This document shows, one piece after another, positions 8,513 to 41,702 of a stretch of DNA of 41,702 nt. The notes under the pieces are model-generated. The model was not told the origin of the DNA, did not search any database, and was given only the letters and a program-made list of their open reading frames with translations. The translations under genes and the position numbers were made by a program. Origin of the DNA: a virus; IMG/VR virus record IMGVR_UViG_3300034655_000019, one strand, 5' to 3'. Every line of letters starts with the position of its first letter. The stretch's first letter is position 1.

Positions 8513-8528
8513 CTGTATGTATACACAG
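8513..8528. promoter_or_regulatory. LexA (SOS) box
   Basis: CTGTATGTATACACAG = CTGT-N8-ACAG, 14/16 to CTGTATATATATACAG. Lies immediately after the TATGAT hexamer (8506-8511). Confidence 0.7.
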
Positions 8529-8568: not shown

Positions 8569-8781
8569 ATGAGCGAGCAGCAGGGAACGACGCAGCGATA
8601 TAACACTAACGTACTGGTAGGCATTAACCAGCGCGATACGCTGCAGAACATTGATGTGATGATGGAATTTATGCAGGTGACCGGCGAAGAGTCGCACGCG
8701 GGCAGCCACATGATTCTAGCCATGGTGCGCGATGCGCTGGGGCATGAGCTGCAGCGCGCGGGCAAGCACGGCCCCCACTAG
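8569..8781 (+). CDS. Small (70 aa) hypothetical protein downstream of the LexA box; candidate SOS-inducible antirepressor
   Basis: ATG 8569 with GGAGG RBS 8 nt upstream. Product MSEQQGTTQRYNTNVLVGINQRDTLQNIDVMMEF...; no family recognised. Confidence 0.55.
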   Translation: MSEQQGTTQRYNTNVLVGINQRDTLQNIDVMMEFMQVTGEESHAGSHMILAMVRDALGHELQRAGKHGPH

Positions 8782-8948
8782 CCCCGCATTCACTCAGGCC
8801 CGGAGCGTTTTGAGAAAATTTTTTTAACACAGTTCGTGTCAAAACGCTTTTGGGATGCTAGGATTGGCAAACAGTGAATTGATGACCACCGCCGGACGGC
8901 GTTGGTTGGAAGGCAAAAAAGACATACAAATTAACTAGATAGACACCC

Positions 8949-8978
8949 AAAAGAAAAGCCCCAGTTGGCGCTGGGGCT
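8949..8978 (-). terminator. Orphan minus-strand rho-independent terminator inside the repA leader
   Basis: AGCCCCAG-ttggcg-CTGGGGCT 8-bp stem; the minus strand continues TTTTCTTTTGGG. No minus-strand CDS feeds it. Confidence 0.6.
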
Positions 8979-9035
8979 TCTCGGATGTTTTGGGCAGCAG
9001 ACTCTTAAGACTGGGCACAAAACCGACTCCCAAGA
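8949..9035 (-). ncRNA. Candidate antisense (CopA-like) countertranscript of the repA leader; 5' end not defined
   Basis: Terminator above plus a second imperfect stem-loop (ACTCTT...AAGAGT, 9000-9037). Only a weak -10-like TTAAAC near 9040-9045 on the minus strand. Confidence 0.3.
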
Positions 9036-9084: not shown

Positions 9085-10050
9085 ATGGATGCTGCAGCAG
9101 AGAACGCGCAGCCCCTCACGTGGGGGCGCGTGCCGTACGAACACCCAGGCAAGTGGTGGGGCACTGGTAACCGGTGTGGCCACGACCCCGCTAAAGGGGA
9201 ATTTGACCGCTATTGCCAACCGCTGAAAAAGGGCAGGCTACCCGCCACCCTGCAGGCGTTGGTAGACGGTGCAAAAGCCTACTACACCAGCCCCGGCTTA
9301 TTACCCACCCTGGCCAATCTGAATGGCAAGGCCAACGCCGATGGCAACCCCCGTTGTAACCGATCCGAGGCCCGCGCCGCTGAGTCGCTGGTGCTTTCTG
9401 CCATCATTCAGTTTACCGAGTTCGCCAGCCTGCGGGTGGGCACCCCGCTAGCCGATGGTGGTTTCAAGCACCGCAGCTGCGCTGAAATTGCCCGCGTGGC
9501 GGGCCTGCTGGCACCCGGCAGCACACCAGAAGCCCCCGAGCCTAGCCAACGCTTTTGGCGCGCCTTCCGGCGCTTGAAGCTGGCTGGCGCGTTCACCGTG
9601 CATTTGCAGCATGAAGTCAAAGCCGACGGCACGAAGCGGGCGCGGCCTGCTGTGAAGCTACTCAACCCGGATTTTCTGCTGGCGCTGGGGCGTGTGGGCT
9701 ACCAGAAGTTTAAGGAGTTCCGCGACTGGTGCAGCAACCGCATTAAGAAAGCCCGCCGTAAGCACCGCGAACAGCACCCCAAGGCGTACGACGCCGCCCA
9801 GGCCCGTAGCCGCCTAGCGATGGCAGGCAGCGGCCCCAGAGCGATGCAGAAGCAGCGCCGGGGTAAGAAGGATCTACCCGACGCCAACGATGAAAAAGAA
9901 CTGCAGCGCCGCTATAACCAAGAGGCAAACGCCTACTTTGCCCAGGTGGTGCGCGATAACCCCGGTGCCAGCCATGCCGAGGTGAACAAGCTGGTGCGCA
10001 TCAAGTACCCGCCGTATGAAGAGTGGCTAGACCGGCAGCGACGTTACTAG
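9085..10050 (+). CDS. repA: Plasmid replication initiator, IncFII RepA-like
   Basis: By-eye colinearity with R100/R1 RepA: SEARAAESLVLSAIIQF..RSCAEIARVAGLL..RFWRAFRRLKLAGAFTV, then a basic C-terminal tail. First ATG in the frame is at 9085. An ori-like region lies directly downstream. Confidence 0.6.
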   Translation: MDAAAENAQPLTWGRVPYEHPGKWWGTGNRCGHDPAKGEFDRYCQPLKKGRLPATLQALVDGAKAYYTSPGLLPTLANLNGKANADGNPRCNRSEARAAESLVLSAIIQFTEFASLRVGTPLADGGFKHRSCAEIARVAGLLAPGSTPEAPEPSQRFWRAFRRLKLAGAFTVHLQHEVKADGTKRARPAVKLLNPDFLLALGRVGYQKFKEFRDWCSNRIKKARRKHREQHPKAYDAAQARSRLAMAGSGPRAMQKQRRGKKDLPDANDEKELQRRYNQEANAYFAQVVRDNPGASHAEVNKLVRIKYPPYEEWLDRQRRY

Positions 10051-10999: not shown

Positions 11000-11272
11000 A
11001 TGCCCCGCCCCAAGCAAATGAACGCCGATGAAGTGGCCACGTGGTTAGCTGTGCTGCTAGATGCTGCCTTTGACCCCGCCCACGATGCCGTAGAACAGCA
11101 AGGCAAGGCCCAACTGCTGGCGCTGGCCAGCGACTTTACCCACTACCCCGACGATTACCCGGACGCCCGCCGGGCTGAATTGCTATTGCGGTGGGTGTCG
11201 ATCTGGCTACCCGGCGAATGGTGGCAGCGGTTGCAGGGCCGGGTAAGAAAGCGGCGTTCACGTGGCGCTTAG
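11000..11272 (+). CDS. Hypothetical protein
   Basis: ATG 11000 with AGGTG 7 nt upstream (the track starts at GTG 10991); 90 aa. Confidence 0.4.
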   Translation: MPRPKQMNADEVATWLAVLLDAAFDPAHDAVEQQGKAQLLALASDFTHYPDDYPDARRAELLLRWVSIWLPGEWWQRLQGRVRKRRSRGA

Positions 11273-11916
11273 TGTGCCTTTTCGCGCATAGCCCGCTTTA
11301 CCTTTTTCACAGTGGTTTCACCGCACCCGGCTAGCTCGCAAATGCGCGCCGTGGTGAACGGTTTGCCTTCACCATCGCGGGCGTTCAATAGCGCTTCAAT
11401 TCGCTGGTGTAGTGCCTTGTTGGGCCGCTTGCCCTGGTACTTGCCTTCCTTCTTTGCTTGCTCTATCCCCTGGCGCTGGCGCGTTCGCCGGTCGTCGTAG
11501 TCTTTGCGGGCTACCGCTGCGAGTACGTCTAGCATCATGGTATTCAGCGCATCGAGCATGCGGGCGGTAAAATCCTCGCCCTGGCTGGGCGTGGCCATGG
11601 CTGCGTAGCTAGTGGGAAGGTCCAGCGACACCACCCGTAACCCTAGCGCCTCAATCTGCCCCCGCAGGTGCCGCCACTCTGCCGCCCCCAGGCGGGAAAG
11701 ACGGTCTACCGATTCTATCAGCAGCACATCACCTTGCTTGGCATCTTCCAGAAGCCTCCTGAGTTCTGGGCGCTGGCTGCTAGCGCCGCTCACATTCTCG
11801 ATATACCAGCTCACTACCTCACGGCGATGTTCAGCGGCGAAGTGTTCTAGCGTGCTGCGTGCCCGCTGGGCGTTCTGTTCTGCCGTGCTGGCGCGTAGGT
11901 ATCCCCTGACGTACAT
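11269..11916 (-). CDS. Serine recombinase (resolvase/invertase family), probable multimer resolvase
   Basis: N-terminal YLRASTAEQ catalytic-Ser motif, DRLSR motif, C-terminal HTH FTTARICELAGCGETTVKKV. Confidence 0.85.
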   Translation of the reverse strand: MYVRGYLRASTAEQNAQRARSTLEHFAAEHRREVVSWYIENVSGASSQRPELRRLLEDAKQGDVLLIESVDRLSRLGAAEWRHLRGQIEALGLRVVSLDLPTSYAAMATPSQGEDFTARMLDALNTMMLDVLAAVARKDYDDRRTRQRQGIEQAKKEGKYQGKRPNKALHQRIEALLNARDGEGKPFTTARICELAGCGETTVKKVKRAMREKAH

Positions 11917-13196: not shown

Positions 13197-13433
13197 TTAG
13201 GTGTACGTCTCAATGCTAAATTCCTTGCCCTCTAGGTTGCCTGCTTTCCATGCTTCCGCTTGGCAGGTGCCGAGCTTGTAAGGCATTGCGTCTAATTCGC
13301 CCTTTGGCTTTCCCGCTAAACGCCAGGCTAAGGTTGAGCGCATACCGTTCATGTGTTCGACACTGCGCGTGTGGGACTTCATAAACTCGTCTGCAATACG
13401 ATTGGCTTTTTGCCGATGCTCGATGGTGATCAT
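13197..13433 (-). CDS. Hypothetical protein
   Basis: 78 aa, followed by a terminator. Only a weak resemblance to the RMF-type motif (AG..G....PY......AW..G). Confidence 0.45.
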   Translation of the reverse strand: MITIEHRQKANRIADEFMKSHTRSVEHMNGMRSTLAWRLAGKPKGELDAMPYKLGTCQAEAWKAGNLEGKEFSIETYT

Positions 13434-14277: not shown

Positions 14278-14298
14278 GGTGTTAGCTCCTGCGTTTTA

Positions 14299-14322
14299 GC
14301 GTGCTAGCGTTATATAACGCTT
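14299..14322. repeat. ATAACGC heptad locus A (GCGTGCTAGCGTTATATAACGC), between parA and the parG-like gene
   Basis: Contains the 14-bp perfect palindrome GCGTTATATAACGC (14307-14320) and the rc of ATAACGCTAGCACGC. Confidence 0.8.
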
Positions 14323-14965
14323 AATTAACAAGCGATTCAAAGCGGTTGATGATGTTTTGTATCAGTTCATCCGCTTGGGCCTTCGGGCCTTTGAATGGGG
14401 TTTCAACAATCGACAGCCCTTTATCTTGGGCTAATACAAACGCGTCGCGCTCGGGTACTTGGCCATCGAGTACAAAATAGGGCGTATGGGCGAGGTAGGC
14501 GCGGGCATCCTGCAGCTGCGTTTTACTCTTGCCCACTTTGCTCAGCGCGATGGCGATGCGCTCAATGGGTACGCCCTCTTGGCCGGTGAGTGTGTTGGCC
14601 AGCCTTACGGTGGGTTCAAGGTCGTCAACGCTTAACGCGGTGGGTAGAACGACGAGATCCGCAAGCCGGGCCACTTCGGCGGTGGCTTTGGTGGCATGGG
14701 GCGCGCCGTCGAAAATCATTAGGTCGTAGGTATCGGCTACCTTTAGAGCGCTGGCCACCGTGCCGAACGTCTCTACGGCCACCTCTGGCGTTACGCCGCT
14801 TTTGAGGCGGCGTTGTAACCAGGTGAAAGAGGTGGATTGGTTAATATCGAGATCCGCTATTTTTACATTCCAGCCCGCAGCGGCGTAGGTGGTGCCCAGC
14901 GCCCGGCTTAGGGTGCTTTTGCTGACGCCGCCCTTTTGGCTAACGAAGGCTATCTTGTGTCCCAT
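14321..14965 (-). CDS. parA: ParA partition ATPase (small type Ib, deviant Walker A)
   Basis: KIAFVSQKGGVSKSTL deviant Walker A; 214 aa without an N-terminal HTH; AAGGGGA RBS. Confidence 0.9.
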   Translation of the reverse strand: MGHKIAFVSQKGGVSKSTLSRALGTTYAAAGWNVKIADLDINQSTSFTWLQRRLKSGVTPEVAVETFGTVASALKVADTYDLMIFDGAPHATKATAEVARLADLVVLPTALSVDDLEPTVRLANTLTGQEGVPIERIAIALSKVGKSKTQLQDARAYLAHTPYFVLDGQVPERDAFVLAQDKGLSIVETPFKGPKAQADELIQNIINRFESLVN

Positions 14966-15005
14966 TGGTGTTTCCCCTTATATGTTCGTTGCGTTTTTGC
15001 GCGCT

Positions 15006-15116
15006 GGCGTTACAGCGTGAAATAACGCTAGCACGCAATAACGCTAGTATAGGAAAGCGCCGCTAGGGGTGCAAGATAAAACGCTATAACGCTAGCGTTA
15101 TTTAACGCTTGGCGTT
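15006..15116. repeat. ATAACGC heptad locus B, about 8 heptads in both orientations upstream of parA (candidate centromere/operator)
   Basis: GCGTTAC..AATAACGCTAGCACGCAATAACGCTAG...AAAACGCTATAACGCTAGCGTTATTTAACGCTTGGCGTT. Confidence 0.8.
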
Positions 15117-15171: not shown

Positions 15172-15954
15172 TTACTGTTTGGCGAGTAAGCCGTTGTGGA
15201 TTAGCACTTGCTTGGCTATCGCTTTCCAGTTGGGGCGCTGGCCGATGTGGTGTTGGCCACCGGCTAGCTTGCTGATCCATGCGGTGTAGGGCTGGCCTTC
15301 GCCTACCACCTCTTTTAAAAACGACTGTTGGAAGTCATACCTAAAATCTTCGTATTGGCGCACCTTGGGGCGTAGGGCTTGGAGGCGTTCCATCACCGCC
15401 GGGAAGTCGTCCTGGCTTAAATCTTCGATGCGTTTTAGGCAGTAGTCGGTGCGGACGCCGTTGTAAAACCAGCCGGTGGCGCTTTGGCGCATGCCGTGGA
15501 AGTTGCGAAACACGGCGTTAGCCGCGTTGGTGAGCTGTTCGCGCTGGCGGTGGTCGATGGGCGTAGGGATGGGCTCGGCGGTGGTGGGCTGCATCGCGCC
15601 TTTGACGCGGAAATAGCTTTTGACGAGCTGGCGCTGCACTTGCCATGCGAGGTCGTCGGTAAACGATTTGACCAGCATAAGGTAGCCGGTTTCGGTCACT
15701 AGGTTGGTTGCCCGCGCCTTGGCTGGGAATAGGTCTGCGTAGCGCGTACGAAATTCGTACGCGCAACTTAATTCGATTGGGTGAAAGTCCTCGCCTTCAA
15801 TCATGTGGCGTTTGTTTTTATGGAAAGTACGTCGCGCTGTTCCTTCTGGCCGCTGGTGTACAGCGTCAATCATGGCGAAGGTAACAACGGGTTCGTTTTG
15901 GTATTCGATATAAGGCAGGGAGGTGCCAGAGATAGAAATGGTGGGTGTGTTCAT
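15172..15954 (-). CDS. ORF6N/KilA-N domain DNA-binding protein (antirepressor-like)
   Basis: EPVVTFAMIDAVHQRPEGTARRTFHKNKRHMIEGEDFHPI...TETGYLMLVKSFTDDLAWQVQRQLVKSYF fits the ORF6N pattern. ATG 15954 with AAGGAAG RBS; the track's upstream extension is rejected. Confidence 0.6.
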   Translation of the reverse strand: MNTPTISISGTSLPYIEYQNEPVVTFAMIDAVHQRPEGTARRTFHKNKRHMIEGEDFHPIELSCAYEFRTRYADLFPAKARATNLVTETGYLMLVKSFTDDLAWQVQRQLVKSYFRVKGAMQPTTAEPIPTPIDHRQREQLTNAANAVFRNFHGMRQSATGWFYNGVRTDYCLKRIEDLSQDDFPAVMERLQALRPKVRQYEDFRYDFQQSFLKEVVGEGQPYTAWISKLAGGQHHIGQRPNWKAIAKQVLIHNGLLAKQ

Positions 15955-17633: not shown

Positions 17634-17932
17634 GCCATCACCCCGTAGGCGGTTAACCGGCGTTCTTCGTGGTCGCCGTAGTGTGGGTTTTCAAAACAGA
17701 ATTCTGAGCGGATGCGGTGCGGGAAGTGGTAGCCGTCGCAGTAGCACGTGTATTTACGCCAGCCCCGGTTATCGGCCCATTTGTCGACTACCAGCGTGTT
17801 GAATTGGCCGCAGTGTTTGCAGCGGATGCGGCGGGTGTAGTCATTCGGGTGCTTGGCCTTGACCTGCCGCCCACGGCAGACGCGACAGCGGCAGTGCCTA
17901 CGGCGCGGGCCTGTGAGGATGTGCGGTTTCAT
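17630..17932 (-). CDS. Cys-rich zinc-binding hypothetical protein
   Basis: CRCRVC, CKHC and CYCDGYHFPH motifs; 100 aa. Confidence 0.45.
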   Translation of the reverse strand: MKPHILTGPRRRHCRCRVCRGRQVKAKHPNDYTRRIRCKHCGQFNTLVVDKWADNRGWRKYTCYCDGYHFPHRIRSEFCFENPHYGDHEERRLTAYGVMA

Positions 17933-18330
17933 GTGCGGCGACCCCCTGCGCTACTGCCCCGCTGAGTACGCATTAGGCGGGCGCTGGCGGTTTGCGTGGG
18001 GCGGCGGGGTAGGCGCTGGGCGATGGCATCTTGTTGGGCGCCATTGCCGAGTGTGGCGACGATCAGTAGCACGGTGAGGCAGCGAGGTAGCAGCACGCCC
18101 AGCACGAACGCGCGGGTAATGAGGTGCGCTTTGCTGAACGCGCCCAGCTTGGCCCGCAGGCTGCTTTCGAGCTGCTGCTGTTGGGCGCGGCTGGTGCCGT
18201 TGATGGCGGCAATGGCGCTGGGGGCGTTGCCGTTGGCGAGGGCGAGCAGGTGGGATAGCTCTTGCTCGCTGAGGGCTTGGCCGGGTTGGGCTAGGGCGTC
18301 GTCGTCGCGCCATGGGGTGGTGTTAGTCAT
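17929..18330 (-). CDS. LuxR/GerE-type HTH protein with hydrophobic C-terminal segment
   Basis: LSEQELSHLLALANGNAPSAIAAINGTSRAQQQQLESSLRAKLGAFSKAHLITRA fits GerE spacing. Followed by LLPRCLTVLLIVATLG. ATG 18330 overlaps the upstream stop. Confidence 0.55.
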   Translation of the reverse strand: MTNTTPWRDDDALAQPGQALSEQELSHLLALANGNAPSAIAAINGTSRAQQQQLESSLRAKLGAFSKAHLITRAFVLGVLLPRCLTVLLIVATLGNGAQQDAIAQRLPRRPTQTASARLMRTQRGSSAGGRRT

Positions 18331-18580
18331 GGTGGCCACCCGTGGCGAGTTCGGCTAGCGCGGCCTTGATCTCTTCTAAATCGCGGCGGTGGCGGTTAAT
18401 GAGAGCAAAAAGGTTGTCGAGTTCTTCCGCTGGGTACTCGCCTTCATCTAGCGCGCATTGGGCCATTTTTTCGAGGCCGCAGGCGATAGCCACGCTTTCG
18501 CGCAAGGCTTGGTGTAGCGCTTGGGGCGTGCAGGCGATGGGGGGCGAGGCGGTAACGGGGGCTAGCGCGTGCGTGGTCAT
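18323..18580 (-). CDS. Hypothetical protein, first gene of the leftward early operon
   Basis: AAGAGGG RBS; 85 aa; directly downstream of operators 18598-18634. Confidence 0.5.
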   Translation of the reverse strand: MTTHALAPVTASPPIACTPQALHQALRESVAIACGLEKMAQCALDEGEYPAEELDNLFALINRHRRDLEEIKAALAELATGGHHD

Positions 18581-18597: not shown

Positions 18598-18614
18598 TTA
18601 CACAGTCTGTGTAA
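18598..18614. promoter_or_regulatory. Operator OL-1: TTACAC-AGTCT-GTGTAA
   Basis: Perfect 8-bp arms TTACACAG/CTGTGTAA. Confidence 0.65.
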
Positions 18615-18617
18615 GAG

Positions 18618-18634
18618 TGACACTAAATGTGTTA
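18618..18634. promoter_or_regulatory. Operator OL-2: TGACAC-TAAAT-GTGTTA
   Basis: Same ACAC-N5-GTGT core, centre 20 bp from OL-1. Confidence 0.6.
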
Positions 18635-18645
18635 TTCGGCAAGCC

Positions 18646-18673
18646 AAAAAAACGGCACTTTGTGGGTGCCGTT
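18646..18673 (-). terminator. Rho-independent terminator after the repressor gene
   Basis: AACGGCAC-loop-GTGCCGTT; 7 T on the minus strand. Confidence 0.8.
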
Positions 18674-18707
18674 CTAGGATTGGGGTGTTTTTCCGCTGGG
18701 CGGGGGC

Positions 18708-19361
18708 TTAGCGTTCGTGCTCGATGATGGCGACGCGGCCGATGATGTTGAGCTGTTGTAGCTGCCCGGTGGTGAGGGTTTCATCCGGGTATTGGTGGCT
18801 GTTTTCGGCGCTCATGGTGTAGCTGCCGTTGATTTCCGGGCGTATCCAGCGCAGCCAAATGCGGTCGCCTACGAGGATGGCGAAGAGGTCGCGCACGGCA
18901 TCGGGCTTGCGGCTCATGTCGATTAGCGCTAAATCGCCCTTGCTGATAACCCCTTCCATGGCGTCATCTTCGGCTTTGACGGTGATAATACTGCTGGGTT
19001 TTAGCCCTTTTTCGGCTAGGTAGTCGTCGCGGTAGGCGGCTACATCGGTGGCGTTTTGCACGGTGATCGAGCCGCCACGGGTTTTAACCGTGGTGCGGTC
19101 TAGCACGACGTAGCTGCTGTCGATCATGCGGTTTGTCCAGCCGACAAAATAGCCGGGGTTGCAGCCAGTTACGTTGCCGATGTCTTCCAATTCTTGATAG
19201 CCGGGCATGCGAATGCCTAGCTCCCAGTTGGTATAACGAGAGCGCACGTAGCCGAGCGCTTCGACTGCGTCGCGGATCGACCACCCTAAGTGGGTGCGCA
19301 CTTCCACTAGTCGCTGTGCGATTAGCTCTTTTTTGTCCTGTCTGTCGCTTTGCTGTGACAT
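18708..19361 (-). CDS. CI-like repressor (XRE HTH + S24/LexA-like domain with apparently substituted catalytic dyad)
   Basis: N-terminal HTH (LGWSIRDAVEALGYVRSRYTNWELG). C-terminus aligns to UmuD/LexA/CI: VKAEDDAMEGVISKGDLALID versus [22 protein letters not shown], and RIWLRWI versus EFTVKKL. Confidence 0.8.
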   Translation of the reverse strand: MSQQSDRQDKKELIAQRLVEVRTHLGWSIRDAVEALGYVRSRYTNWELGIRMPGYQELEDIGNVTGCNPGYFVGWTNRMIDSSYVVLDRTTVKTRGGSITVQNATDVAAYRDDYLAEKGLKPSSIITVKAEDDAMEGVISKGDLALIDMSRKPDAVRDLFAILVGDRIWLRWIRPEINGSYTMSAENSHQYPDETLTTGQLQQLNIIGRVAIIEHER

Positions 19362-19456: not shown

Positions 19457-19473
19457 ATACACAAAGCGTGTAA
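19457..19473. promoter_or_regulatory. Operator OR-1: ATACAC-AAAGC-GTGTAA
   Basis: In the cI/cro divergent region. Confidence 0.6.
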
Positions 19474-19492
19474 GTGTGGAATAAAAAAACCT

Positions 19493-19777
19493 TTGTACGT
19501 GGGCAATCTTCGCGCTAGGCTTAACACACTTCGTGTTAAATGGTGCGCTAAAGTGTTGCTAAATGATTGGATTGATCAAGTGGGCGGGCCGGACTGTGCG
19601 GGCGCGCTGCTCAGCGAGAAGCCCCGTACGGTGATGAGCTGGTATCGCTTTGATCGTGCCCCGAGTTTACGCACCGCTGGGCGCATCGTGCGGTTGACCG
19701 CTGGCGCGGTGGATTATAACGGCATCTATGGCCCTTGGGCGGCGGTGCTGGCTGAGCGTGATGGGGTGGCGGCGTGA
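19493..19777 (+). CDS. Cro/YdaS-like DNA-binding protein (true start probably downstream, e.g. GTG 19556)
   Basis: LNDWIDQVGGPDCAGALLSEKPRTVMSWYRFDRAPSLRTAGRIVRLTAGAVD fits the Cro/YdaS HTH family pattern. The track start is TTG and would include operator OR-2. Confidence 0.6.
   Translation: MYVGNLRARLNTLRVKWCAKVLLNDWIDQVGGPDCAGALLSEKPRTVMSWYRFDRAPSLRTAGRIVRLTAGAVDYNGIYGPWAAVLAERDGVAA
19522..19538. promoter_or_regulatory. Operator OR-2: TAACAC-ACTTC-GTGTTA
   Basis: Perfect arms (7 bp with flanks TTAACAC/GTGTTAA). Confidence 0.6.
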
Positions 19778-23621: not shown

Positions 23622-24890
23622 ATGCCTAAAACCCTCGCTGTTACCCTGTCTGATGCTGCGATTAAGCGGCACCTACCTGACCCTGATATTTTCCAGTTGC
23701 GCGACCCGCGCTACCCGGTGCGGGTGCGCTTTCATGCGAGCCGTGATCGTGCCAGCTGGTACGTGGTGCGCTACGCGGGCGGGCGTGGCCACTGGCACCG
23801 GGTGGGCAATTACCCGGAGTTGACGACCCGCGCTTTGCTGGCGCGTTTGCCTGAGTTGGAGGCCAAGCTGGCGCTTGACCCGGCGGGGCCGGTGGGCGTC
23901 GATGCGTGGGAAACCGTGGCCGACCTGCTGTGTTGGTATCGTGACCGTTCGGCTTCCCATGGCCGTTTATCCGCTACTCGAAAATCATCGATCAAAACCG
24001 CCGTTAATCGTCACTTGCTGCCCCTGTTCGGTGCCCGGCCGCTGGCGGGCATTACCCCGGCGTGTATCGACAGTGGCTTGGTGTGGCCGCTGCAAGAGCA
24101 TTATTCGGTGGCCTATGTGCGCCTGATTTTCGGGGTGATCAAGGCCGCGTTTAAGCAAGCCCGCAAGCTGAACCTGCTGGATACTGACCCCTTCGCTGGG
24201 GTGAATGTGGGTGATTTCATCGACGCAAAAACCCCAGCTAAGGCGGGGGCGCTGACCGCTTCCGATGTGCCTGATCTGATAAGCGCGTTGCGTTCGTGCG
24301 ATCCGCCGGGGTGTTTCCTGCTGTTGTTAATGCTGCTGTTTGGCACCCGTATTAGCGAGACGCGGCTAGCCAAGTGGGGGCAGTTCGATCTCGAAGCGCG
24401 CACGTGGACCATCCCCACCGACAACACAAAATCAAAGCGACAGCACCGCCTGCCGTTAACGCCCATGGCCGTGACGCTGCTAACCCGTTACCGCGCTTAT
24501 CAGCAAGCCAATGGTTACCGGGGAGTGTATTTGTTCCCTGGTGCATCGAAAGGTAAGCCGCTATCCCGTTCAGCCGTGTTTGATCTGGTGGTGAGTGCCA
24601 GTGGTGCGCGTTGGCATTCTCACGATCTGCGTAAGCTCGCCCGTACCACATGGGCTGACCTCGGGGTCGAGTATCTGGCCGGTGAGTTGTTGCTGAACCA
24701 TGCGCTATCGAAGCTCGACCGTACCTACATTCATACCTACGCTGAGCGGCAGATTCTCGATGCGTTGGAGCGCTGGCATACCTGGCTATGTGAGCGCGGT
24801 TTTAGCGTGTTTCTGACCGAGACAGAGCCGAGATTGTCGTTTTATCACAACAGCGACCAGCCCCAGTGGTGGCAAGGGGTGGCGGGGTAA
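23622..24890 (+). CDS. int: Tyrosine integrase, P4-type (DUF4102-like N-terminal arm-binding domain)
   Basis: GTRISETRLAKWGQFD, HDLRKLARTTWADLG, LLNHALSKLDRTYIHTY (R..HxxR..Y catalytic pattern). Confidence 0.85.
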   Translation: MPKTLAVTLSDAAIKRHLPDPDIFQLRDPRYPVRVRFHASRDRASWYVVRYAGGRGHWHRVGNYPELTTRALLARLPELEAKLALDPAGPVGVDAWETVADLLCWYRDRSASHGRLSATRKSSIKTAVNRHLLPLFGARPLAGITPACIDSGLVWPLQEHYSVAYVRLIFGVIKAAFKQARKLNLLDTDPFAGVNVGDFIDAKTPAKAGALTASDVPDLISALRSCDPPGCFLLLLMLLFGTRISETRLAKWGQFDLEARTWTIPTDNTKSKRQHRLPLTPMAVTLLTRYRAYQQANGYRGVYLFPGASKGKPLSRSAVFDLVVSASGARWHSHDLRKLARTTWADLGVEYLAGELLLNHALSKLDRTYIHTYAERQILDALERWHTWLCERGFSVFLTETEPRLSFYHNSDQPQWWQGVAG

Positions 24891-24974: not shown

Positions 24975-24991
24975 TAACACTCAACGTGTTG
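24975..24991. promoter_or_regulatory. Fifth operator-like site TAACAC-TCAAC-GTGTTG, upstream of the lysis/late genes
   Basis: Same ACAC-N5-GTGT core as the immunity-region operators. Confidence 0.5.
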
Positions 24992-25430: not shown

Positions 25431-25974
25431 CGCCGGAGTGGGCGCAGTAATGGCGATAGCGGCGGGCATCATCGTGCCGTTCGAGGGCACCAAGCTGGAG
25501 AGCTACCGAGACGCGGTAGGCGTGTGGACGGTTTGCACCGGGCACACGGCCACCGCAGCCCCAGGCCAAACGCTCACCCCGGCAGAGTGTGACGCGTTGC
25601 TAGAGCAGGACATGCGCGAGGCGCTGAGCGCGGTGGATCGCATCATTACCGCGCCCCTTCCCGATGATACCCGCGCCGCGTTCGTTTCGTTCACGTTCAA
25701 CGTGGGCGCGGGCAACCTGCAGCGTTCGACGCTGGCCCGGCTGGCGAATGCTGGGGAGCTTGAGGCTGCATGCAATGAGTTGTCCCGCTGGGTGTATGCC
25801 GGTGGTGAGCGGTTGCGCGGGCTGGCAAGACGCCGCGCCGTTGAGCGTGATGTGTGTTTAGAGGGGGTGCGGGATGCTGAGCAGGATGCTAACGAAGCTG
25901 ATTCCGTGGGCGCTGGTGATAGCGCTGGTCGCTGGCATTGGTTTGATGTGGCGACTCAGTGGGTTACAGGCTGA
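25408..25974 (+). CDS. SAR endolysin, GH24 lysozyme family
   Basis: N-terminal signal-anchor AISAGVGAVMAIAAGIIV. Catalytic E-x8-D-x5-T in FEGTKLESYRDAVGVWTVCTGHT. AGGAGAGAG RBS. Confidence 0.85.
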   Translation: MANKRAISAGVGAVMAIAAGIIVPFEGTKLESYRDAVGVWTVCTGHTATAAPGQTLTPAECDALLEQDMREALSAVDRIITAPLPDDTRAAFVSFTFNVGAGNLQRSTLARLANAGELEAACNELSRWVYAGGERLRGLARRRAVERDVCLEGVRDAEQDANEADSVGAGDSAGRWHWFDVATQWVTG

Positions 25975-26296
25975 GTTAGAGCAGGCCCAGCAGCAGCACG
26001 CGAAAGCACAAGCCGCGCTTGATGTGACCGCCGCGACGTTGGCGGTGCAGGTAGAGCGTAACCGGCTGTTAGTTGAAGCGTTAGATGTGCGCGAACGTGA
26101 ATTAAACGACGGCGCGCAGCGCATCGACCGACTGCGCGCCCAGGCCGAAGCCATGGGGGTGAACGATGCGGATTCAGATTCTAGGGCGTGGGCTGGCCAG
26201 CCTGTGCCTATCGGCGTTGCTGATTGGGTGCGCCGCCTCACCCGCCCCGACACCAGCGGAGCCGACACCCCAAGCGCTGCCGTGGTTCCTGATTGA
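25874..26296 (+). CDS. i-spanin (Rz-like)
   Basis: N-terminal TM LIPWALVIALVAGIGLMW, then a coiled-coil periplasmic domain. Confidence 0.75.
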   Translation: MLSRMLTKLIPWALVIALVAGIGLMWRLSGLQAELEQAQQQHAKAQAALDVTAATLAVQVERNRLLVEALDVRERELNDGAQRIDRLRAQAEAMGVNDADSDSRAWAGQPVPIGVADWVRRLTRPDTSGADTPSAAVVPD

Positions 26297-26438
26297 TCCA
26301 CGCCCCGCGCCCGTCCGAGAGATCCACACCAACCGCGACCTGCTGCAGCTGCTAGCCGACTACGAAGCCCTGCGCATCCGCTTCAACGCCGACCGCCGCG
26401 CCGTGGCGTTGATATTCCGCAATCGGCAGGCCGAGTAA
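26166..26438 (+). CDS. o-spanin lipoprotein (Rz1-like), overlapped architecture
   Basis: Lipobox LLIGC, Pro-rich mature N-terminus. Starts inside Rz in another frame and extends past it. Confidence 0.75.
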   Translation: MRIQILGRGLASLCLSALLIGCAASPAPTPAEPTPQALPWFLIDPRPAPVREIHTNRDLLQLLADYEALRIRFNADRRAVALIFRNRQAE

Positions 26439-26681
26439 TGCACCAACGCGGTGCAAAAAAAACGCGGGTCCTTCCTAGCAAGTGATGCCTAGACCACGGG
26501 GGCAGGCAGTCGCGGATTTCGGGAAATTTTCGGGTTTTCAGGATGTACCACCGCAGGTGGGGTTAATCCCGTGTGGTTGCTCAGCGCGTTAACTGTGCAA
26601 GTTGTACATCGAGCAGCTTGTTTTTAATCGAATCATGTACAGCTGAGCGGGGGTTATCAGCGCCGCAAGAGGTGGGCATCT

Positions 26682-27182
26682 ATGGGTGAAGTGGTCGAGA
26701 GCAAAGATGCCTATAACTGGTCGGTGAGCAGGATTGGTCAAGCGTTCGGATTAGACCGCCGCACGGTGGCTAAACGGTTGCAAGAGAGCGGCGTCATGCC
26801 CGCCGGGACGCGTCGAGGAAACCCCACGTATGCACTTTCAGACGTTGGCCCGGCGCTGTTCGGAGAAAAGACGCCGGTAGCGGGCGGGCTGGATTTAGAC
26901 CAGTTCCCCGATGCGCGTAAGGCTTGGTATCAGTCGGAAAACGAGCGCCTTAAATTTGAGGTGGCCATAAAGCAGCTGATACCGGCGCATGAGTTTGCCC
27001 GCGAGTTAAGCACCCTGGCCAAGACGGTGGCGGCGGGCCTGGATTCATTGCCCGATGCGTTGGAGCGTGACGCCGGGCTAGACCCTGACGCCATCGAACG
27101 TGTACAGCACGTTATCGACGCGCTGCGCGAGCAGATGTACCAAGCGGCAACGGCGGATATGGAGAGCCCAGAAAATGGCTAA
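26682..27182 (+). CDS. Terminase small subunit
   Basis: N-terminal HTH SVSRIGQAFGLDRRTVAKRLQESGV; 8-nt overlap with terL; AAGAGGTGGG RBS. Confidence 0.7.
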   Translation: MGEVVESKDAYNWSVSRIGQAFGLDRRTVAKRLQESGVMPAGTRRGNPTYALSDVGPALFGEKTPVAGGLDLDQFPDARKAWYQSENERLKFEVAIKQLIPAHEFARELSTLAKTVAAGLDSLPDALERDAGLDPDAIERVQHVIDALREQMYQAATADMESPENG

Positions 27183-29256
27183 CACCGCTAACGCTGCCGC
27201 CATTCGCCATGACATAGCCACGCTGTTACGCCCGCCGCGCCGGGTGCGTGTGAGTGAGGCGGTGGCCGAGTCGATGTACGTTGTACACGGCAACGGCACC
27301 AAAACGCTTTGGAAACCGGACAAAACCCCCTACATGATCGAGCCCATGGACTGCATGGGCTCCCGCAAATATGACGCGGTGATTTTCGTAGGCCCGGCGC
27401 GAACAGGTAAAACCATCGGCCTCGTTGACGGCTTTATTTGCTACAAGATCATCAACGACCCTGGTGATGGGCTGGTCGTACAAATTACCGAAACCAAGGC
27501 AGCGGAGTACAGCAAAAAGCGCTTGCGCCGTAGCTTCAACGCTTCGCCCGAAATTACCAAGCGGTTAAGCCCGCGTGGCCACGACAACAACGTTCACGAC
27601 ATCATTTTTCGCGCTGGCAACATGTTGGCGATTAAGCACCCATCGAAGAACGTTTTTGCATCGTCTGATTACCAATTTGTGCTACTGACCGACTACGACC
27701 GTATGACGGAAAACGTAGGCGGTGAGGGTTCCGGCTGGGTGCTGGCGAGCAAACGTACCCAAACGTTCGGCAGTACCGGCATGACGCTGGTGGAGAGTTC
27801 GCCCGGCAGGCCGGTGCTCGATGCCGATTGGCAGCAGCCCGACGACGAGCCGCACCGGGCACCGCCCACCACCGGCATACTGGATCTTTACAACCAAGGC
27901 GACCGCCGCCGCTTGTACTGGCAGTGTCCAGAAAGCGCCTGCCGCCGCTGGTTTCAGCCGATTCAAGAGAATTTCAGCATGAAAAGCGGGTGTGTGTTTT
28001 GCCCGCACTGTGGCGCTGAGGTCGACCAGCGAGTTAAGCGCGAGCTTAACCAGCGTGGCCGCTGGGTGCCGGAAGGCTGCGAGCTGACGTTAGACGGCGA
28101 GCTGCTAGGCACCCCGCGTGAAACCCGCATCGCGTCATTCTGGATGGAAGGTCCGGCGGCATCGGATCAAACATGGCAATCGCTGGTGAGCAAGCTGCGC
28201 GCCGCCGAAGAGACGTTTCAGGCCACGGGCAACCAAAAAGATTTGCAGTCGGTCACCAACGTCGATTGGGGCCGCCCCTATGTAAACCGCACGCCGGGGG
28301 AGAAGCGCTCAGGTCAGCGCCTGAAAGATCGAGGCGAAGCCTACCAGCATCGAACCGTGCCCCACGGTGTGCGCTTTCTTACGGCAGCGGTAGACGTACA
28401 GGGCGGCAAAAACCGCCGGTTCGTGGTGCAGGTGCATGGCTGGGGGCCGAACCGCGAAACGTGGCTAGTGGACCGCTTCAACATCAAAGAGGATCGCGGC
28501 CCCGACGGCGACCAGCCACCCAGGCAGATTAACCCTATGACGCAGCCCGAGGATTGGGACTTGCTGACCCGCGACGTGCTCAAGCGCACCTATAAGCTGG
28601 GCGACGGCAGCGGGCGGCGTATGCCGATTCTCGCCATGGGCGTGGATACCGGCGGGGAAGGCAAAGGCACTGAAAGCGTGACCTCGCAGGCGTACGAATA
28701 CCACCGCCGGTTAAGAGCCGGGGGCGATGGCCTGCAAGGCCGCGTGTACCTGCTGAAAGGCGGTAGTAGCAAAACTAATAGCCGCATCCGTAAAACCGAG
28801 CCCGACAACACCAAGCGCAAAAGCCGCAGCAGTGGGGCGCGTGGCGATGTGCCGTTGTACCTGTTGGGCACCGATCTGTTGAAAGACACCGTAGCGGCGA
28901 TGATCGACCGCGAACAGCCCGGCGCGGGCTACATGCACACCCCTGATTGGTTGGGTATGTGGTGGTTTGACGAGCTGACCTACGAAGTACGCGACCCCGC
29001 CACCGGCAAATGGGCGCGCCCTGGCAGCAAGCCAAACGAAGCCTTCGACCTGTTCGTTTACAACCTCGCCATTTTCATTCTGCTGGGGGGCGAGAAGATC
29101 AACTGGCAAGCCCCGCCCACGTGGGCCGACCACTGGGACGCTAACTTGCTGCTAAGCGCGCCCACCACCGGCACCGAAGCAAGCCAACCACCACCCCAGG
29201 CACAACCCGCGCCCCAAGCGCGTCGCCGCCGTCGCGTTGTTAAGCCCCGAATTTAG
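27175..29256 (+). CDS. Terminase large subunit, lambda GpA family
   Basis: Walker A FVGPARTGKT, zinc-ribbon CPESACRRW...CPHCG, GpA-like order. ATG 27175 (the track start 27100 is rejected). Confidence 0.9.
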   Translation: MANTANAAAIRHDIATLLRPPRRVRVSEAVAESMYVVHGNGTKTLWKPDKTPYMIEPMDCMGSRKYDAVIFVGPARTGKTIGLVDGFICYKIINDPGDGLVVQITETKAAEYSKKRLRRSFNASPEITKRLSPRGHDNNVHDIIFRAGNMLAIKHPSKNVFASSDYQFVLLTDYDRMTENVGGEGSGWVLASKRTQTFGSTGMTLVESSPGRPVLDADWQQPDDEPHRAPPTTGILDLYNQGDRRRLYWQCPESACRRWFQPIQENFSMKSGCVFCPHCGAEVDQRVKRELNQRGRWVPEGCELTLDGELLGTPRETRIASFWMEGPAASDQTWQSLVSKLRAAEETFQATGNQKDLQSVTNVDWGRPYVNRTPGEKRSGQRLKDRGEAYQHRTVPHGVRFLTAAVDVQGGKNRRFVVQVHGWGPNRETWLVDRFNIKEDRGPDGDQPPRQINPMTQPEDWDLLTRDVLKRTYKLGDGSGRRMPILAMGVDTGGEGKGTESVTSQAYEYHRRLRAGGDGLQGRVYLLKGGSSKTNSRIRKTEPDNTKRKSRSSGARGDVPLYLLGTDLLKDTVAAMIDREQPGAGYMHTPDWLGMWWFDELTYEVRDPATGKWARPGSKPNEAFDLFVYNLAIFILLGGEKINWQAPPTWADHWDANLLLSAPTTGTEASQPPPQAQPAPQARRRRRVVKPRI

Positions 29257-39210: not shown

Positions 39211-41702
39211 ATGGCTCAAACCTATAAAACTGGCTTAATCATCACCGGGGATGCCAGTGGTGGCATTCGGGCCATTAAGGCTACCGAGGACGAACTCGGC
39301 AAGCTCAACCAAGGCTTTGACCGCGGCTCACGTCGTAGCCGTCAGTTTAACCAAGACGTTAACGCCACTAGCCAAGGTTTGGCCGTGCTGCGCCGCGCCG
39401 CTGCGCCTATTGCCGGTGCTATTGCGGGCATGTTTGCGGCTAACTCGCTGCAAAACCAGATCAACTGGGCCGACCAGCTGCAGAAAACCAACCTGCGCAT
39501 TGGAGCCAGCACAGAAGCGCTGAGCCAGTACAACTACGTCGCCAGCCTTTCCGGCGTCGAGTTCAACCAGCTGACGACGGCATGGCAGCGCCAAACCCGG
39601 CGTATTGCCGAAGCCGCTGCAGGCACAGGGGTAGCCGTCGCGGCGCTGGATCGCCTCAATCTTAGCGCCCAAGAGCTGAACCAACTGGCCCCAGAAGACC
39701 AGTTCGAGCGCATCGCGGAAGCCATGCAGGGCGTGGAAAACAGCAGTGAGCGCGTGCGCCTTGCCCAGCAGCTTTGGGATAGCGAGGGCGTAAAACTGGT
39801 GCAGATCGTCAACAGTGGCACCGATGCCATTGCTGCCATGCGCGCGGAGGCTGACGCGCTGGGCCTAACGATCAGCCAAGACACCGCCAACGCCATGGCA
39901 AGCTATAACGATGAAGTCGATCGCCTAAAGTTTGCCGCGCAGGGTGTCAGCCAAACGCTGCTTTCTGAGCTAGTGCCTGCGATGACGGCAGGGCTACAAA
40001 ACGTCAATGCGTTTATCCAAGAGGCGGGCGGCGCGGCCAGCATTTTGAATGAAGTGAAAGACGTAGCCGCCATCACCGCCGCTGTGCTGGCGGGCCGTTA
40101 CGCCGCGGCCATGGTGACGGCTAGCCAAGCCACGTTACAGAAGCTAGCCGCTGACCGTGCGGCTGCAGCGCAGTCTGCTCTCAGCATGGAGGCAGAAGCG
40201 GGGCGCGCCGCCATGCAGGCCCGCACAACCGCAGCAGAACTGAACACGGCGGCGGTACGTGCCACCATTGCGGCTCAAGAGGCGGCGCAGGAGCGCGCCG
40301 CAGCAGCGCAAGACGTGCAGCGGTTGCAGCGCCTGCAAGCACAGCTAGCCGCAGAGAAAACCCTGGCCGCCCAGCGCTTAGCCGAACAATCCAATGCCGC
40401 AGGCCGTATGCAGGTGCAGGCGCGCATCAACCAGTTACATACCGCAGAACTGACGGCCACTAACCAGCTAACCGCGGCAACCACCCGGCTCAACCAGGCA
40501 GAAGCCGCCGCCGTATCAACCAAGCGGCTAGCCACTACTGCCAGTATCGAGAAAACCAGAGCGGATACTGCCGCCACTGCCGCCGTGGGCCGCTACACTG
40601 CTGCAACGCATGCGACCACCAATGCCAATACGCTGCTGGCCGCTTCTGGGCGCGCTGCATCGAGTGCGCTGGCGCTGGTGGGTGGGCCGCTGGGTCTTCT
40701 AGTCGGTGCAGGTGGCTTGTTGTATGCCTTCCGTGAGGAGATTGGGCTGGTTCGTCAAGCGGTCGAGCCGACGACACGGCGTATCGACAACCTGACCGAT
40801 GCCATCAACCGTAACAGCGTGGCAGCGGTTGAAGCGGGTATCGTTAACCTGTCGGCTGAGTATTTCACGCTAGGGCAGCGTGCAGCGGCGACAACGGCTC
40901 AGATTGAGCGGCTAAACGCTGCTCAAGAGAATGACCGCCAAGGCGCTCAGGCCCGCTTGCAAAACAACATGCGTTTGCGCGACTTGCGCGAAGAACTAGC
41001 GCAGATTGTCGCCGAGCAGGAAGCGGCGGGCGAAGCGTCTACACGCCTGCGTGAAACGCTGGAAGGGCTAGGCGAGACAGCGGTTCCTGCTACCAGCTCA
41101 TTAACGGATTTAGGCGACACCACCCGCGAAGCCGCCAAACAAACCACCACGCTCGCCAACAGCTACGAAAACCTGCTCGACCGCATCCAGCCCAACCGTC
41201 GCGCCGCACGGCAGTACGCGCAGGATGTGGGCACGCTGAACCTAGCCCTGGCCACGGGCCGCATGACCACCGTGCAGTACATGCAGGCCATGGGCATGCT
41301 GCAGGAGTCGTTTCAGGCGGCGCAGCGGGAAACAGAAAACACCGCTAATGCCTCAGAAGACGCCAGCCAGCGCATCGCCAACAGCTTCCTCAGCTGGGAA
41401 ACCGTCGCGGATAACACGCTGCGCCGTATTGATGATTCCGGCCAAAGCTTGTGGCTTGGCTTGATCGATGGTTCTGAAAGTGCGCTCGATACTGTGAAGC
41501 GGGGCTTCCAGCAAACGCTGGCAGAAATCGCCCACATGCTCACCACGCAAAAACTGACCTTCCAAGTCGCGGGCATGATGGGGCTAGACACCACCGGCAT
41601 GCCCGGCGGCGGCGGCTTCAATCTTGGCTCGCTAGGTTCGCTCTACAGCAGCGCAACGAAATTGCCCTACGTGGGCGATGCCATTAGTGGGGTGGGCAGC
41701 GC
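39211..41702 (+). CDS. Tail tape measure protein, N-terminal part (continues at 1..2423); absent from the supplied ORF track because no stop precedes the window end
   Basis: ATG 39211 after GAGGTGG. Own translation: MAQTYKTGLIITGDASGGIRAIKATEDELGKLNQ...LSAQELNQLAPEDQFERIAEAMQGVENSSERVRLAQQLWDSEGVKLV (lambda-family TMP N-terminal motif). Open to the window end. Confidence 0.9.
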   Translation, partial: MAQTYKTGLIITGDASGGIRAIKATEDELGKLNQGFDRGSRRSRQFNQDVNATSQGLAVLRRAAAPIAGAIAGMFAANSLQNQINWADQLQKTNLRIGASTEALSQYNYVASLSGVEFNQLTTAWQRQTRRIAEAAAGTGVAVAALDRLNLSAQELNQLAPEDQFERIAEAMQGVENSSERVRLAQQLWDSEGVKLVQIVNSGTDAIAAMRAEADALGLTISQDTANAMASYNDEVDRLKFAAQGVSQTLLSELVPAMTAGLQNVNAFIQEAGGAASILNEVKDVAAITAAVLAGRYAAAMVTASQATLQKLAADRAAAAQSALSMEAEAGRAAMQARTTAAELNTAAVRATIAAQEAAQERAAAAQDVQRLQRLQAQLAAEKTLAAQRLAEQSNAAGRMQVQARINQLHTAELTATNQLTAATTRLNQAEAAAVSTKRLATTASIEKTRADTAATAAVGRYTAATHATTNANTLLAASGRAASSALALVGGPLGLLVGAGGLLYAFREEIGLVRQAVEPTTRRIDNLTDAINRNSVAAVEAGIVNLSAEYFTLGQRAAATTAQIERLNAAQENDRQGAQARLQNNMRLRDLREELAQIVAEQEAAGEASTRLRETLEGLGETAVPATSSLTDLGDTTREAAKQTTTLANSYENLLDRIQPNRRAARQYAQDVGTLNLALATGRMTTVQYMQAMGMLQESFQAAQRETENTANASEDASQRIANSFLSWETVADNTLRRIDDSGQSLWLGLIDGSESALDTVKRGFQQTLAEIAHMLTTQKLTFQVAGMMGLDTTGMPGGGGFNLGSLGSLYSSATKLPYVGDAISGVGS
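41576..41702. repeat. Terminal overlap, copy 2 (identical to 1..127)
   Basis: Same 127 nt as the window start; lies inside the tape-measure reading frame. Confidence 0.95.

Follow-up and report, generated by a model that had tools for sequence, protein, structure and literature searches.

A CI-like phage repressor with the S24 fold but without its catalytic dyad, and a candidate LexA-controlled antirepressor, in a probable phage-plasmid

We analyzed the immunity region of the virus genome IMGVR_UViG_3300034655_000019, a stretch of 41,702 nucleotides (nt; hereafter the window), which encodes a 217-amino acid (aa) CI-like repressor. This protein keeps the fold shared by LexA, UmuD, and lambda CI (S24), and the two columns that hold the catalytic serine and lysine of S24 peptidases are occupied by alanine and arginine. 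Far from the repressor gene, a LexA box precedes a gene for a 70-aa protein whose sequence follows the immunity type of the element. From the computed fold, catalytic loss, enrichment of operator-like sites, LexA box with its conservation, and co-variation with immunity, we infer a system of two parts: a CI-type repressor that escapes self-cleavage and a small protein whose gene LexA would control by binding the box, and that would act as an antirepressor after DNA damage. We regard this as the probable explanation of the whole, with appreciable room for others. Coordinates of all features are collected in Table 1.

The C-terminal part of the repressor (residues 100–210) matches the Pfam profile Peptidase_S24 (PF00717) at 37.9 bits, above a gathering cut-off of 23.3, and a profile-profile alignment of the repressor family with LexA, CI, UmuD, and C2 references reached an hhalign probability of 97.3% (E 2.6e-11). 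An AlphaFold2 model of the protein, with a mean predicted local distance difference test score (pLDDT) of 86.6, was used to search the PDB with Foldseek, and this retrieved 186 CI, Thermotoga LexA, the C-terminal domain of lambda CI, UmuD', and the C-domain of M. tuberculosis LexA. Because sequence searches of the PDB, whether with the single protein or with the family profile, reached only helix-turn-helix (HTH) domains, such as those of P22 C2, SinR, and ImmR, the C-domain is one that fold and profile-profile methods detect. The protein also matches PHROG_4, "transcriptional repressor" (2.5e-22), and carries the label "CI-like repressor" in PHROGs; NCBIfam supplied no name for it, and a Megablast of the immunity region against a phage collection gave no match. 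By Pfam, hhalign, and Foldseek, the repressor belongs to the S24 superfamily, as the original prediction, made by eye from the letters, had proposed in describing an S24 fold signature.

To place the catalytic columns we used annotated references, namely the products of E. coli lexA and umuD, lambda cI, P22 c2, and 186 cI, having verified the catalytic residues (LexA S119/K156, UmuD S60/K97, lambda S149/K192) and the scissile bonds (LexA A84-G85, UmuD C24-G25, lambda A111-G112). When these were aligned with the 18-member repressor family by MAFFT L-INS-i, E-D-D-A134-M fell under G-x-S-M and W-L-R171-W-I under T-V/F-K-K/R-L, and hhalign reproduced both equivalences. The exchanges of Ser for Ala and of Lys for Arg that the original prediction had claimed are thus found by both alignments and in the codons themselves, GCC and CGC; profile match, alignments, and structural model together give a retained fold with neither Ser nor Lys at the catalytic positions. 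In addition, an aspartate replaces the glycine two residues before the Ser column, and T-R-G-G stands at the MAFFT column of the Ala-Gly (or Cys-Gly) cleavage bond, within a loop that is hypervariable across the family. Three features of an active S24 peptidase are therefore missing: the nucleophilic Ser, the general-base Lys, and an Ala-Gly or Cys-Gly scissile bond. Judged by established S24 enzymology, such a protein should be incapable of LexA-type self-cleavage, and the earlier claim that RecA cannot stimulate its cleavage would hold. Since the fold and profile tests are positive and all three catalytic tests negative, we view the repressor as a non-peptidase homologue within S24, one that should not be classified among the active peptidases.

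The same two substitutions occur in copies of 99–100% identity on other contigs and in a 92.6% identical protein encoded by a finished Halomonas plasmid, and an arginine at the Lys column is found throughout most of the wider family described below, which together argue that they are not sequencing noise. Arginine occupies this column in every one of 17 homologues spanning 35–99% identity, and their Ser column holds S, A, V, or T. A profile search run exhaustively over 1.84 billion representatives returned 83 proteins below 1e-30 and 3,731 below 1e-10. We then aligned to the family hidden Markov model (HMM) 107 distinct sequences, made up of full-length matches from the profile search and repressors extracted from viral contigs. 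Arginine replaces the lysine in 96 of the 107, hereafter the Arg clade. The Ser column within this clade holds Ser in 54 members, Ala in 23, Thr in 6, Val in 4, and another residue in 9, and an Asp sits at position −2 of that column in 92 of the 96. All seven relatives that bear the lysine have the serine as well, six of them in the form G-D-S-M. Ser is thus invariant only where Lys is present and drifts where Lys has become Arg, as loss of catalysis predicts; read in this way, the alignment points to constraint relaxed exactly at the positions where catalysis would demand invariance.

Homologues at 22–29% identity delimit the Arg clade. Two of these more distant proteins, the c repressor of D3112 and the repressor of Haemophilus phage SuMu, are catalytically canonical, with G-(D/S)-S-M, the lysine, and an Ala-Gly loop all present. 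The viral locus L041, which reads M-D-N-S-C ... W-I-K-W-I-R-P-E and so keeps both Ser and Lys, is an apparent intermediate. Taken together, these sequences indicate that the window protein is nothing exceptional within a large clade of pseudo-peptidases, in which loss of the dyad would be the ancestral state and no local accident.

The S24 fold is retained, together with the hairpin bearing the cleavage loop, and more than half of the clade has the serine. Both facts would also suit a repressor that is still inactivated by proteolysis of its linker, either by residual self-cleavage or in trans, through a dedicated protease or another S24 protein; UmuD is known to undergo intermolecular cleavage. 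The residues of the window protein speak strongly against this, with Ala at the nucleophile, Arg at the base, and neither Ala-Gly nor Cys-Gly in the aligned hypervariable loop, as does the gene content, in which neither a second S24 protein nor an ImmA-type HExxH protein was found. An ImmA/IrrE-type protease partner was itself rejected on the ground that no open frame of at least 80 aa in the genome contains an HExxH motif. We consider linker proteolysis very improbable.

The repressor gene has the surroundings of a CI-type switch. It encodes an N-terminal HTH, lies between leftward and rightward early operons, runs divergently from a cro-like gene, and has repeated palindromes on either side; the leftward operon includes genes for a sigma-like protein, an exonuclease, and a protein with an ORF6N domain. 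The palindromes follow the pattern ACAC-N5-GTGT, which occurs genome-wide at seven sites compared with 0.48 expected, a number that none of 100 shuffled sequences attained. Two lie to the left of the repressor gene (18600 and 18620), two to the right (19459 and 19524), and three elsewhere (8827, 13360, and 24977). Their short arms escaped the default repeat finder; they were spotted by eye and then confirmed by a pattern search. Relatives carry ACAC-N5-GTGT at the corresponding places, and heteroimmune relatives carry a CAC-(A/T-rich)5-GTG variant with other flanks. The sites at 8827 and 24977 are likewise conserved in position and change in sequence with the immunity type. We take these palindromes as putative operators of the repressor; the three distant ones may serve long-range looping or direct control of other promoters. 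The cro-like gene had no family match in searches of profile libraries, and its real start is probably the GTG at 19553, which would give a 74-aa product as in the annotated homologue of H. qaidamensis.

The same arrangement bears on whether the gene is an accessory XRE/S24-like regulator and not the immunity repressor, in which case its catalytic state would be irrelevant to induction. NCBIfam's silence on the protein leaves space for such a view, as does the fact that its immunity role is read here from sequence alone. The gene nonetheless occupies the classic CI position opposite the cro-like gene and between the early operons, has a terminator of its own, and is the only HTH plus S24-like gene found in the genome, and the enriched palindromes beside it change sequence along with the HTH in heteroimmune relatives. 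Of all the readings considered here, we give this one the least credence.

The LexA box lies 10.2 kb from the immunity region in the window, just downstream of a −10-like hexamer, TATGAT. In the 10-kb flanks of the repressor loci L006–L008 and L024–L042, which end just short of the corresponding distance, no LexA box was seen. Its sequence, CTGTATGTATACACAG, has two mismatches to the 16-mer gammaproteobacterial consensus, and when up to three mismatches are allowed the genome contains this one match against 0.04 expected. When applied to lexA, umuD, and the p95/tum promoter of phage 186, the LexA pattern finds their known boxes. The weight we place on the box comes from how well it agrees with the full consensus, where it lies, and how it is conserved, not from the perfect CTGT-N8-ACAG match alone. 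Together with the small open reading frame (ORF) downstream, it forms a unit outside the immunity region, the arrangement that characterizes LexA-controlled antirepressors. In the AlphaFold2 model of the 70-aa product (pLDDT 71.5), two helices form a hairpin.

Homologues of the 70-aa ORF are present on nine viral contigs, each with a LexA box, and a unit of box and 70–78-aa ORF recurs on the H. qaidamensis plasmid, in Pseudomonas phage PARCL1pr and Vibrio phage K303, and at loci L077, L079, L080, and L082. The box is thereby conserved before the small ORF in at least five diverged lineages. PARCL1pr and K303 both belong to the Arg clade, with repressors 33% and 29% identical to that of the window and small ORFs of 78 and 77 aa; at the four numbered loci, which were compared for the small-ORF unit, the box precedes a 78-aa ORF. 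The small proteins of the window, PARCL1pr, K303, and related units have in common an N-x-L-V...D-T-(L/V) motif, and targeted profile scores for the distant ones are weak (12.6 bits for K303 and 3.1 bits for PARCL1pr).

Co-variation with immunity was visible in two heteroimmune contigs, 3300020383_000010 and 3300029260_000512, which share 82–93% nucleotide identity with the window over most genes. Both have a different immunity region in place of that of the window, and their repressor is only 41–44% identical to the window protein (33–36% in the N-terminal domain, 28–30% in the linker, and 51–56% in the C-terminal domain). At the small-ORF locus, the promoter region, the LexA box, the 5' leader, and the first nine codons are identical between both contigs and the window; the remaining ORF body is 48% identical, and the palindrome behind it has been swapped for the heteroimmune type. 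The H. qaidamensis plasmid, whose backbone is ~80% identical, has the same immunity type as the window (repressor 92.6% identical, with D-D-A-M and R) and a small ORF of 70% identity. Because the unit recurs in Arg-clade phages and the ORF body tracks immunity while promoter and flanks are conserved, the 70-aa protein is probably a partner of the repressor that is under SOS control and specific to the immunity type, and so a candidate antirepressor. The original prediction had held that induction must use another route, such as an antirepressor. The conserved LexA box and an ORF that co-varies with immunity type agree with such a route; the word "must" went too far, since the prophage may not be inducible at all, or may depend on proteolysis by host proteases.

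Several results weigh against the antirepressor interpretation or its premises. At least one perfect CTGT-N8-ACAG arises in 39 of 100 shuffled sequences, so that a single perfect box is not improbable on its own. The 70-aa protein has no match among PHROG, Pfam, or NCBIfam families, its predicted fold finds only designed or generic helical hairpins in the PDB, and it bears no similarity to 186 Tum (GfoA and AntC were compared by description only). A simple scan passed no sigma-70 promoter in the immunity region and none at the small-ORF locus. The co-variation rests on two well-resolved immunity types plus distant lineages in which small-ORF homology is as faint as the bit scores given above. 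Finally, 56% of the Arg clade still has the serine, where it may have a residual structural or other role.

The most substantial competing explanation accepts the non-cleavable repressor and assigns the 70-aa protein another SOS-timed role, as a DinI- or SulA-like modulator or as a regulator of the 321-aa gene downstream; derepression would then proceed through the ORF6N protein or degradation by host ClpXP/Lon, or there would be no SOS induction at all. The missing resemblance of the small ORF to known antirepressors in the family, fold, and Tum comparisons fits such a role. So does the 321-aa gene, which lies ~260 nt downstream of the small ORF in relatives and might be functionally linked to it, and so do the PHROG "anti-repressor" labels on the ORF6N protein. 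Set against these, the ORF body and its operator-like site were swapped along with the immunity region, and the promoter, the flanks, and the 321-aa and ORF6N genes remained conserved, a pattern sampled in few immunity types, and K303 has the small-ORF unit without a directly adjoining 321-aa gene. The ORF6N gene, moreover, is part of the leftward early operon, presumed from its position, by analogy with lambda PL, to be off in the lysogen and hence incapable of starting induction. We judge this second explanation unlikely on balance, while granting it a serious share of the probability.

The ORF6N protein was accordingly ranked lower as the primary inducer: it belongs to a presumed repressor-controlled operon, and its region, at 83–88% nucleotide identity in heteroimmune relatives, does not co-vary with immunity. 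Both in the window and in diverged relatives, the 321-aa gene is found ~260–300 nt downstream of the small-ORF unit, the unit of K303 being kept without it directly adjoining. For its product, plasmid replication and a function as SOS effector were raised as candidates. As SOS effector it was ranked below the 70-aa protein, given that it is 85–91% identical in heteroimmune phages and does not follow the immunity type.

In the scheme that we favor, in which the 70-aa protein is an antirepressor, the HTH of the repressor would bind the 17-bp ACAC-N5-GTGT palindromes to the left and right of its gene and a few distant sites, and the S24-fold pseudo-peptidase domain would serve oligomerization or partner binding without cleaving itself on RecA filaments. 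Host LexA would occupy the SOS box and repress the monocistronic 70-aa gene. Upon DNA damage, activated RecA (RecA*) would promote LexA cleavage, the helical-hairpin protein would be made, and its binding to the cognate repressor would inactivate the latter and open the early promoters. Combining this scheme with the clade-wide substitutions yields a more speculative proposal, to which we attach little confidence: that the dead cleft has been rebuilt around the conserved Asp(−2)...Arg pair and is now the receptor for the SOS-induced two-helix protein. If this were true, a former self-cleaving protease would have become a pseudo-enzyme sensor that receives its "substrate" in trans, throughout a large unrecognized clade of phage and phage-plasmid repressors.

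The antirepressor logic has precedents. Induction of phage 186 proceeds through the antirepressor Tum and not through cleavage of its CI, and LexA-controlled antirepressor genes outside the immunity region of Gifsy prophages were shown experimentally to act on non-cleaved repressors, a mechanism similar to those of 186 and N15 (PMC3121763). The Gifsy antirepressors GfoA and GftA have roughly half the length of Tum (146 aa), and the Gifsy repressors are short (136 aa) and have no C-terminal S24-type domain (PMC3121763). Coliphage 186 CI resembles the window repressor in structure: Foldseek ranked its entries 7jvt and 2fjr first, it combines an HTH N-domain with a C-domain of the same fold, and in our MAFFT alignment it too is without the dyad, the Ser position being Gly and the Lys position Arg. 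The tum gene, like the 70-aa ORF, lies behind a LexA box far from the immunity region. The two systems differ in that 186 CI is only ~10–13% identical (Foldseek) and cannot be aligned in the family HMM, Tum is a 146-aa protein with a DinI-like half and without similarity to the 70-aa ORF, and 186, a P2-like phage, integrates and has convergent promoters, whereas the window element has a lambda-like switch layout and a plasmid partition system.

Gifsy-1 and Gifsy-3 of Salmonella, with GfoR/GfhR and GfoA/GfhA, resemble the window in their non-cleaved repressors and in small antirepressor genes placed under LexA outside the immunity region; their repressors differ in having no S24-type domain, whereas that of the window keeps the whole domain as a pseudo-enzyme (for GfoA, as for AntC, the comparison is one of descriptions). 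The likeness to CB/AntC of N15, which is a plasmid prophage, consists of the LexA-controlled antirepressor logic and the plasmid state. With LexA, lambda CI, P22 C2, and UmuD, the window repressor shares PF00717, the fold, the succession of HTH, linker hairpin, and beta-rich C-domain, and a lambda/P22-like layout of operators and cro; it departs from these canonical S24 repressors in being without the Ser/Lys dyad and the Ala-Gly bond, G-D-S-M...K having become D-x-x-M...R-W-I-R-P-E clade-wide. By analogy with 186 CI/Tum, N15 CB/AntC, and Gifsy GfoR/GfoA, we would thus be dealing with a known strategy in a new family. What is new here is the clade signature D-x-x-M ... R-W-I-R-P-E, its breadth, the family of small proteins, and the phage-plasmid setting; the principle was known already.

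The signature offers a rule, readable from sequence, for separating non-cleavable from cleavable CI/LexA-like repressors: D-x-x-M with R-W-I-R-P-E on one side, and G-D-S-M with V-K-R-L on the other. For predicting prophage inducibility, the presence of an S24 domain is then no evidence of RecA-dependent cleavage. In databases both kinds of repressor carry the name "S24 family peptidase" or "LexA family transcriptional regulator", and NCBI applies these names to Arg-clade proteins (P0008, and WP_264431621.1 in L068) even though the clade is without the catalytic Lys and often without the Ser. The LexA-controlled small proteins would constitute a new family of candidate antirepressors in phage-plasmids of marine and halophilic bacteria (Halomonas, Pseudomonas, and Vibrio), and natural heteroimmune pairs, in which a shared backbone carries a swapped repressor, small ORF, and operator, would make specificity experiments straightforward.

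Table 1. Positions of the repressor gene, its domains and catalytic columns, the small-ORF unit, operator-like sites, and other features of the window
Feature	Coordinates	Strand	Basis or remark
Immunity repressor gene, CI-like, 217 aa, ATG start	18708..19361	-	XRE-type HTH plus S24-fold pseudo-peptidase domain
HTH DNA-binding domain, residues 15-72	19146..19319	-	Pfam HTH_3/HTH_19/HTH_31
S24-like C-terminal domain, residues 100-210	18732..19064	-	Pfam PF00717 and hhalign
Codon GCC, Ala134, catalytic Ser column (LexA S119, lambda S149, UmuD S60)	18960..18962	-	DNA and two alignments
Codon CGC, Arg171, catalytic Lys column (LexA K156, lambda K192, UmuD K97)	18849..18851	-	DNA and two alignments
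LexA (SOS) box CTGTATGTATACACAG	8513..8528	+	The genome's only perfect CTGT-N8-ACAG
Small ORF, 70 aa, GGGGAGG ribosome-binding site; candidate SOS-induced antirepressor	8569..8781	+	41 nt downstream of LexA box
Operator-like palindrome TAACACAGTTCGTGTCA between small ORF and its terminator	8825..8841	.	TTCACAAATAGTGG instead in heteroimmune relatives
G+C-rich hairpin closing the small-ORF unit, terminator-like on both strands	8953..8984	.	Follows small ORF and its palindrome
321-aa protein, phrog_20951, conserved W-G-R-x-P-Y-E-H-P-G-K-W-W-G-T-G-N-R-C-G-H motif	9085-10050	+	Downstream of small-ORF unit
Two operator-like palindromes TTACACAGTCTGTGTAA, TGACACTAAATGTGTTA, OL-like, between repressor gene and leftward early operon	18598..18634	.	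ACAC-N5-GTGT, positions kept in relatives
Terminator-like hairpin and T run directly 3' of repressor gene	18649..18675	-	Putative terminator of the gene
Two operator-like palindromes ATACACAAAGCGTGTAA, TAACACACTTCGTGTTA, OR-like, between repressor and cro-like gene	19457..19538	.	ACAC-N5-GTGT, positions kept in relatives
cro-like first gene of rightward operon	19493..19777	+	Role inferred from position
Operator-like ACAC-N5-GTGT palindrome	13358-13374	.	Pattern search
Operator-like palindrome TAACACTCAACGTGTTG between integrase and lysis genes	24975..24991	.	Position kept in relatives
ORF6N-domain protein, PHROG "anti-repressor" label, leftward early operon; secondary, weaker antirepressor candidate	15172..15954	-	PHROG
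PHROG "sigma factor" family protein (phrog_3282, 8.4e-09), leftward early operon, beside small proteins	17929-18339	-	Profile match
ParA-family partition ATPase	14321-14965	-	Repeats at 14290-14321 and 14990-15109
Serine recombinase/DNA invertase, phrog_125	11269-11916	-	Downstream of tail genes, beside small ORFs

The window is a circular assembly and a complete genome: the 127 nt at its end are identical to those at its start (41576–41702 and 1–127), leaving 41,575 unique bases with 58.5% G+C. It encodes a terminase, a portal, head and tail proteins, lysis proteins, a tyrosine integrase (23622..24890), a serine invertase, and ParA, whose gene has centromere-like direct and inverted repeats of ATAACGCTAGC(G) on both sides. 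The window element is ~80% identical to a finished plasmid of Halomonas qaidamensis XH36 (NZ_CP080628.1, locus L068), which is circular and 45.9 kb long. Despite the tyrosine integrase gene, the element is probably a Halomonas-type temperate phage-plasmid of ~41.6 kb with a Halomonas-like gammaproteobacterial host.

Three minor observations concern other parts of these elements. The serine invertase could operate a tail-fiber or other invertible switch. On the H. qaidamensis plasmid, a reverse transcriptase adjoins a "four helix bundle protein" near the tail genes (25638–27319), an arrangement resembling a diversity-generating retroelement, and by BLAST comparison this block has no counterpart in the window. 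The ParA homologue of phage PARCL1pr carries the annotation protochlorophyllide reductase BchL.

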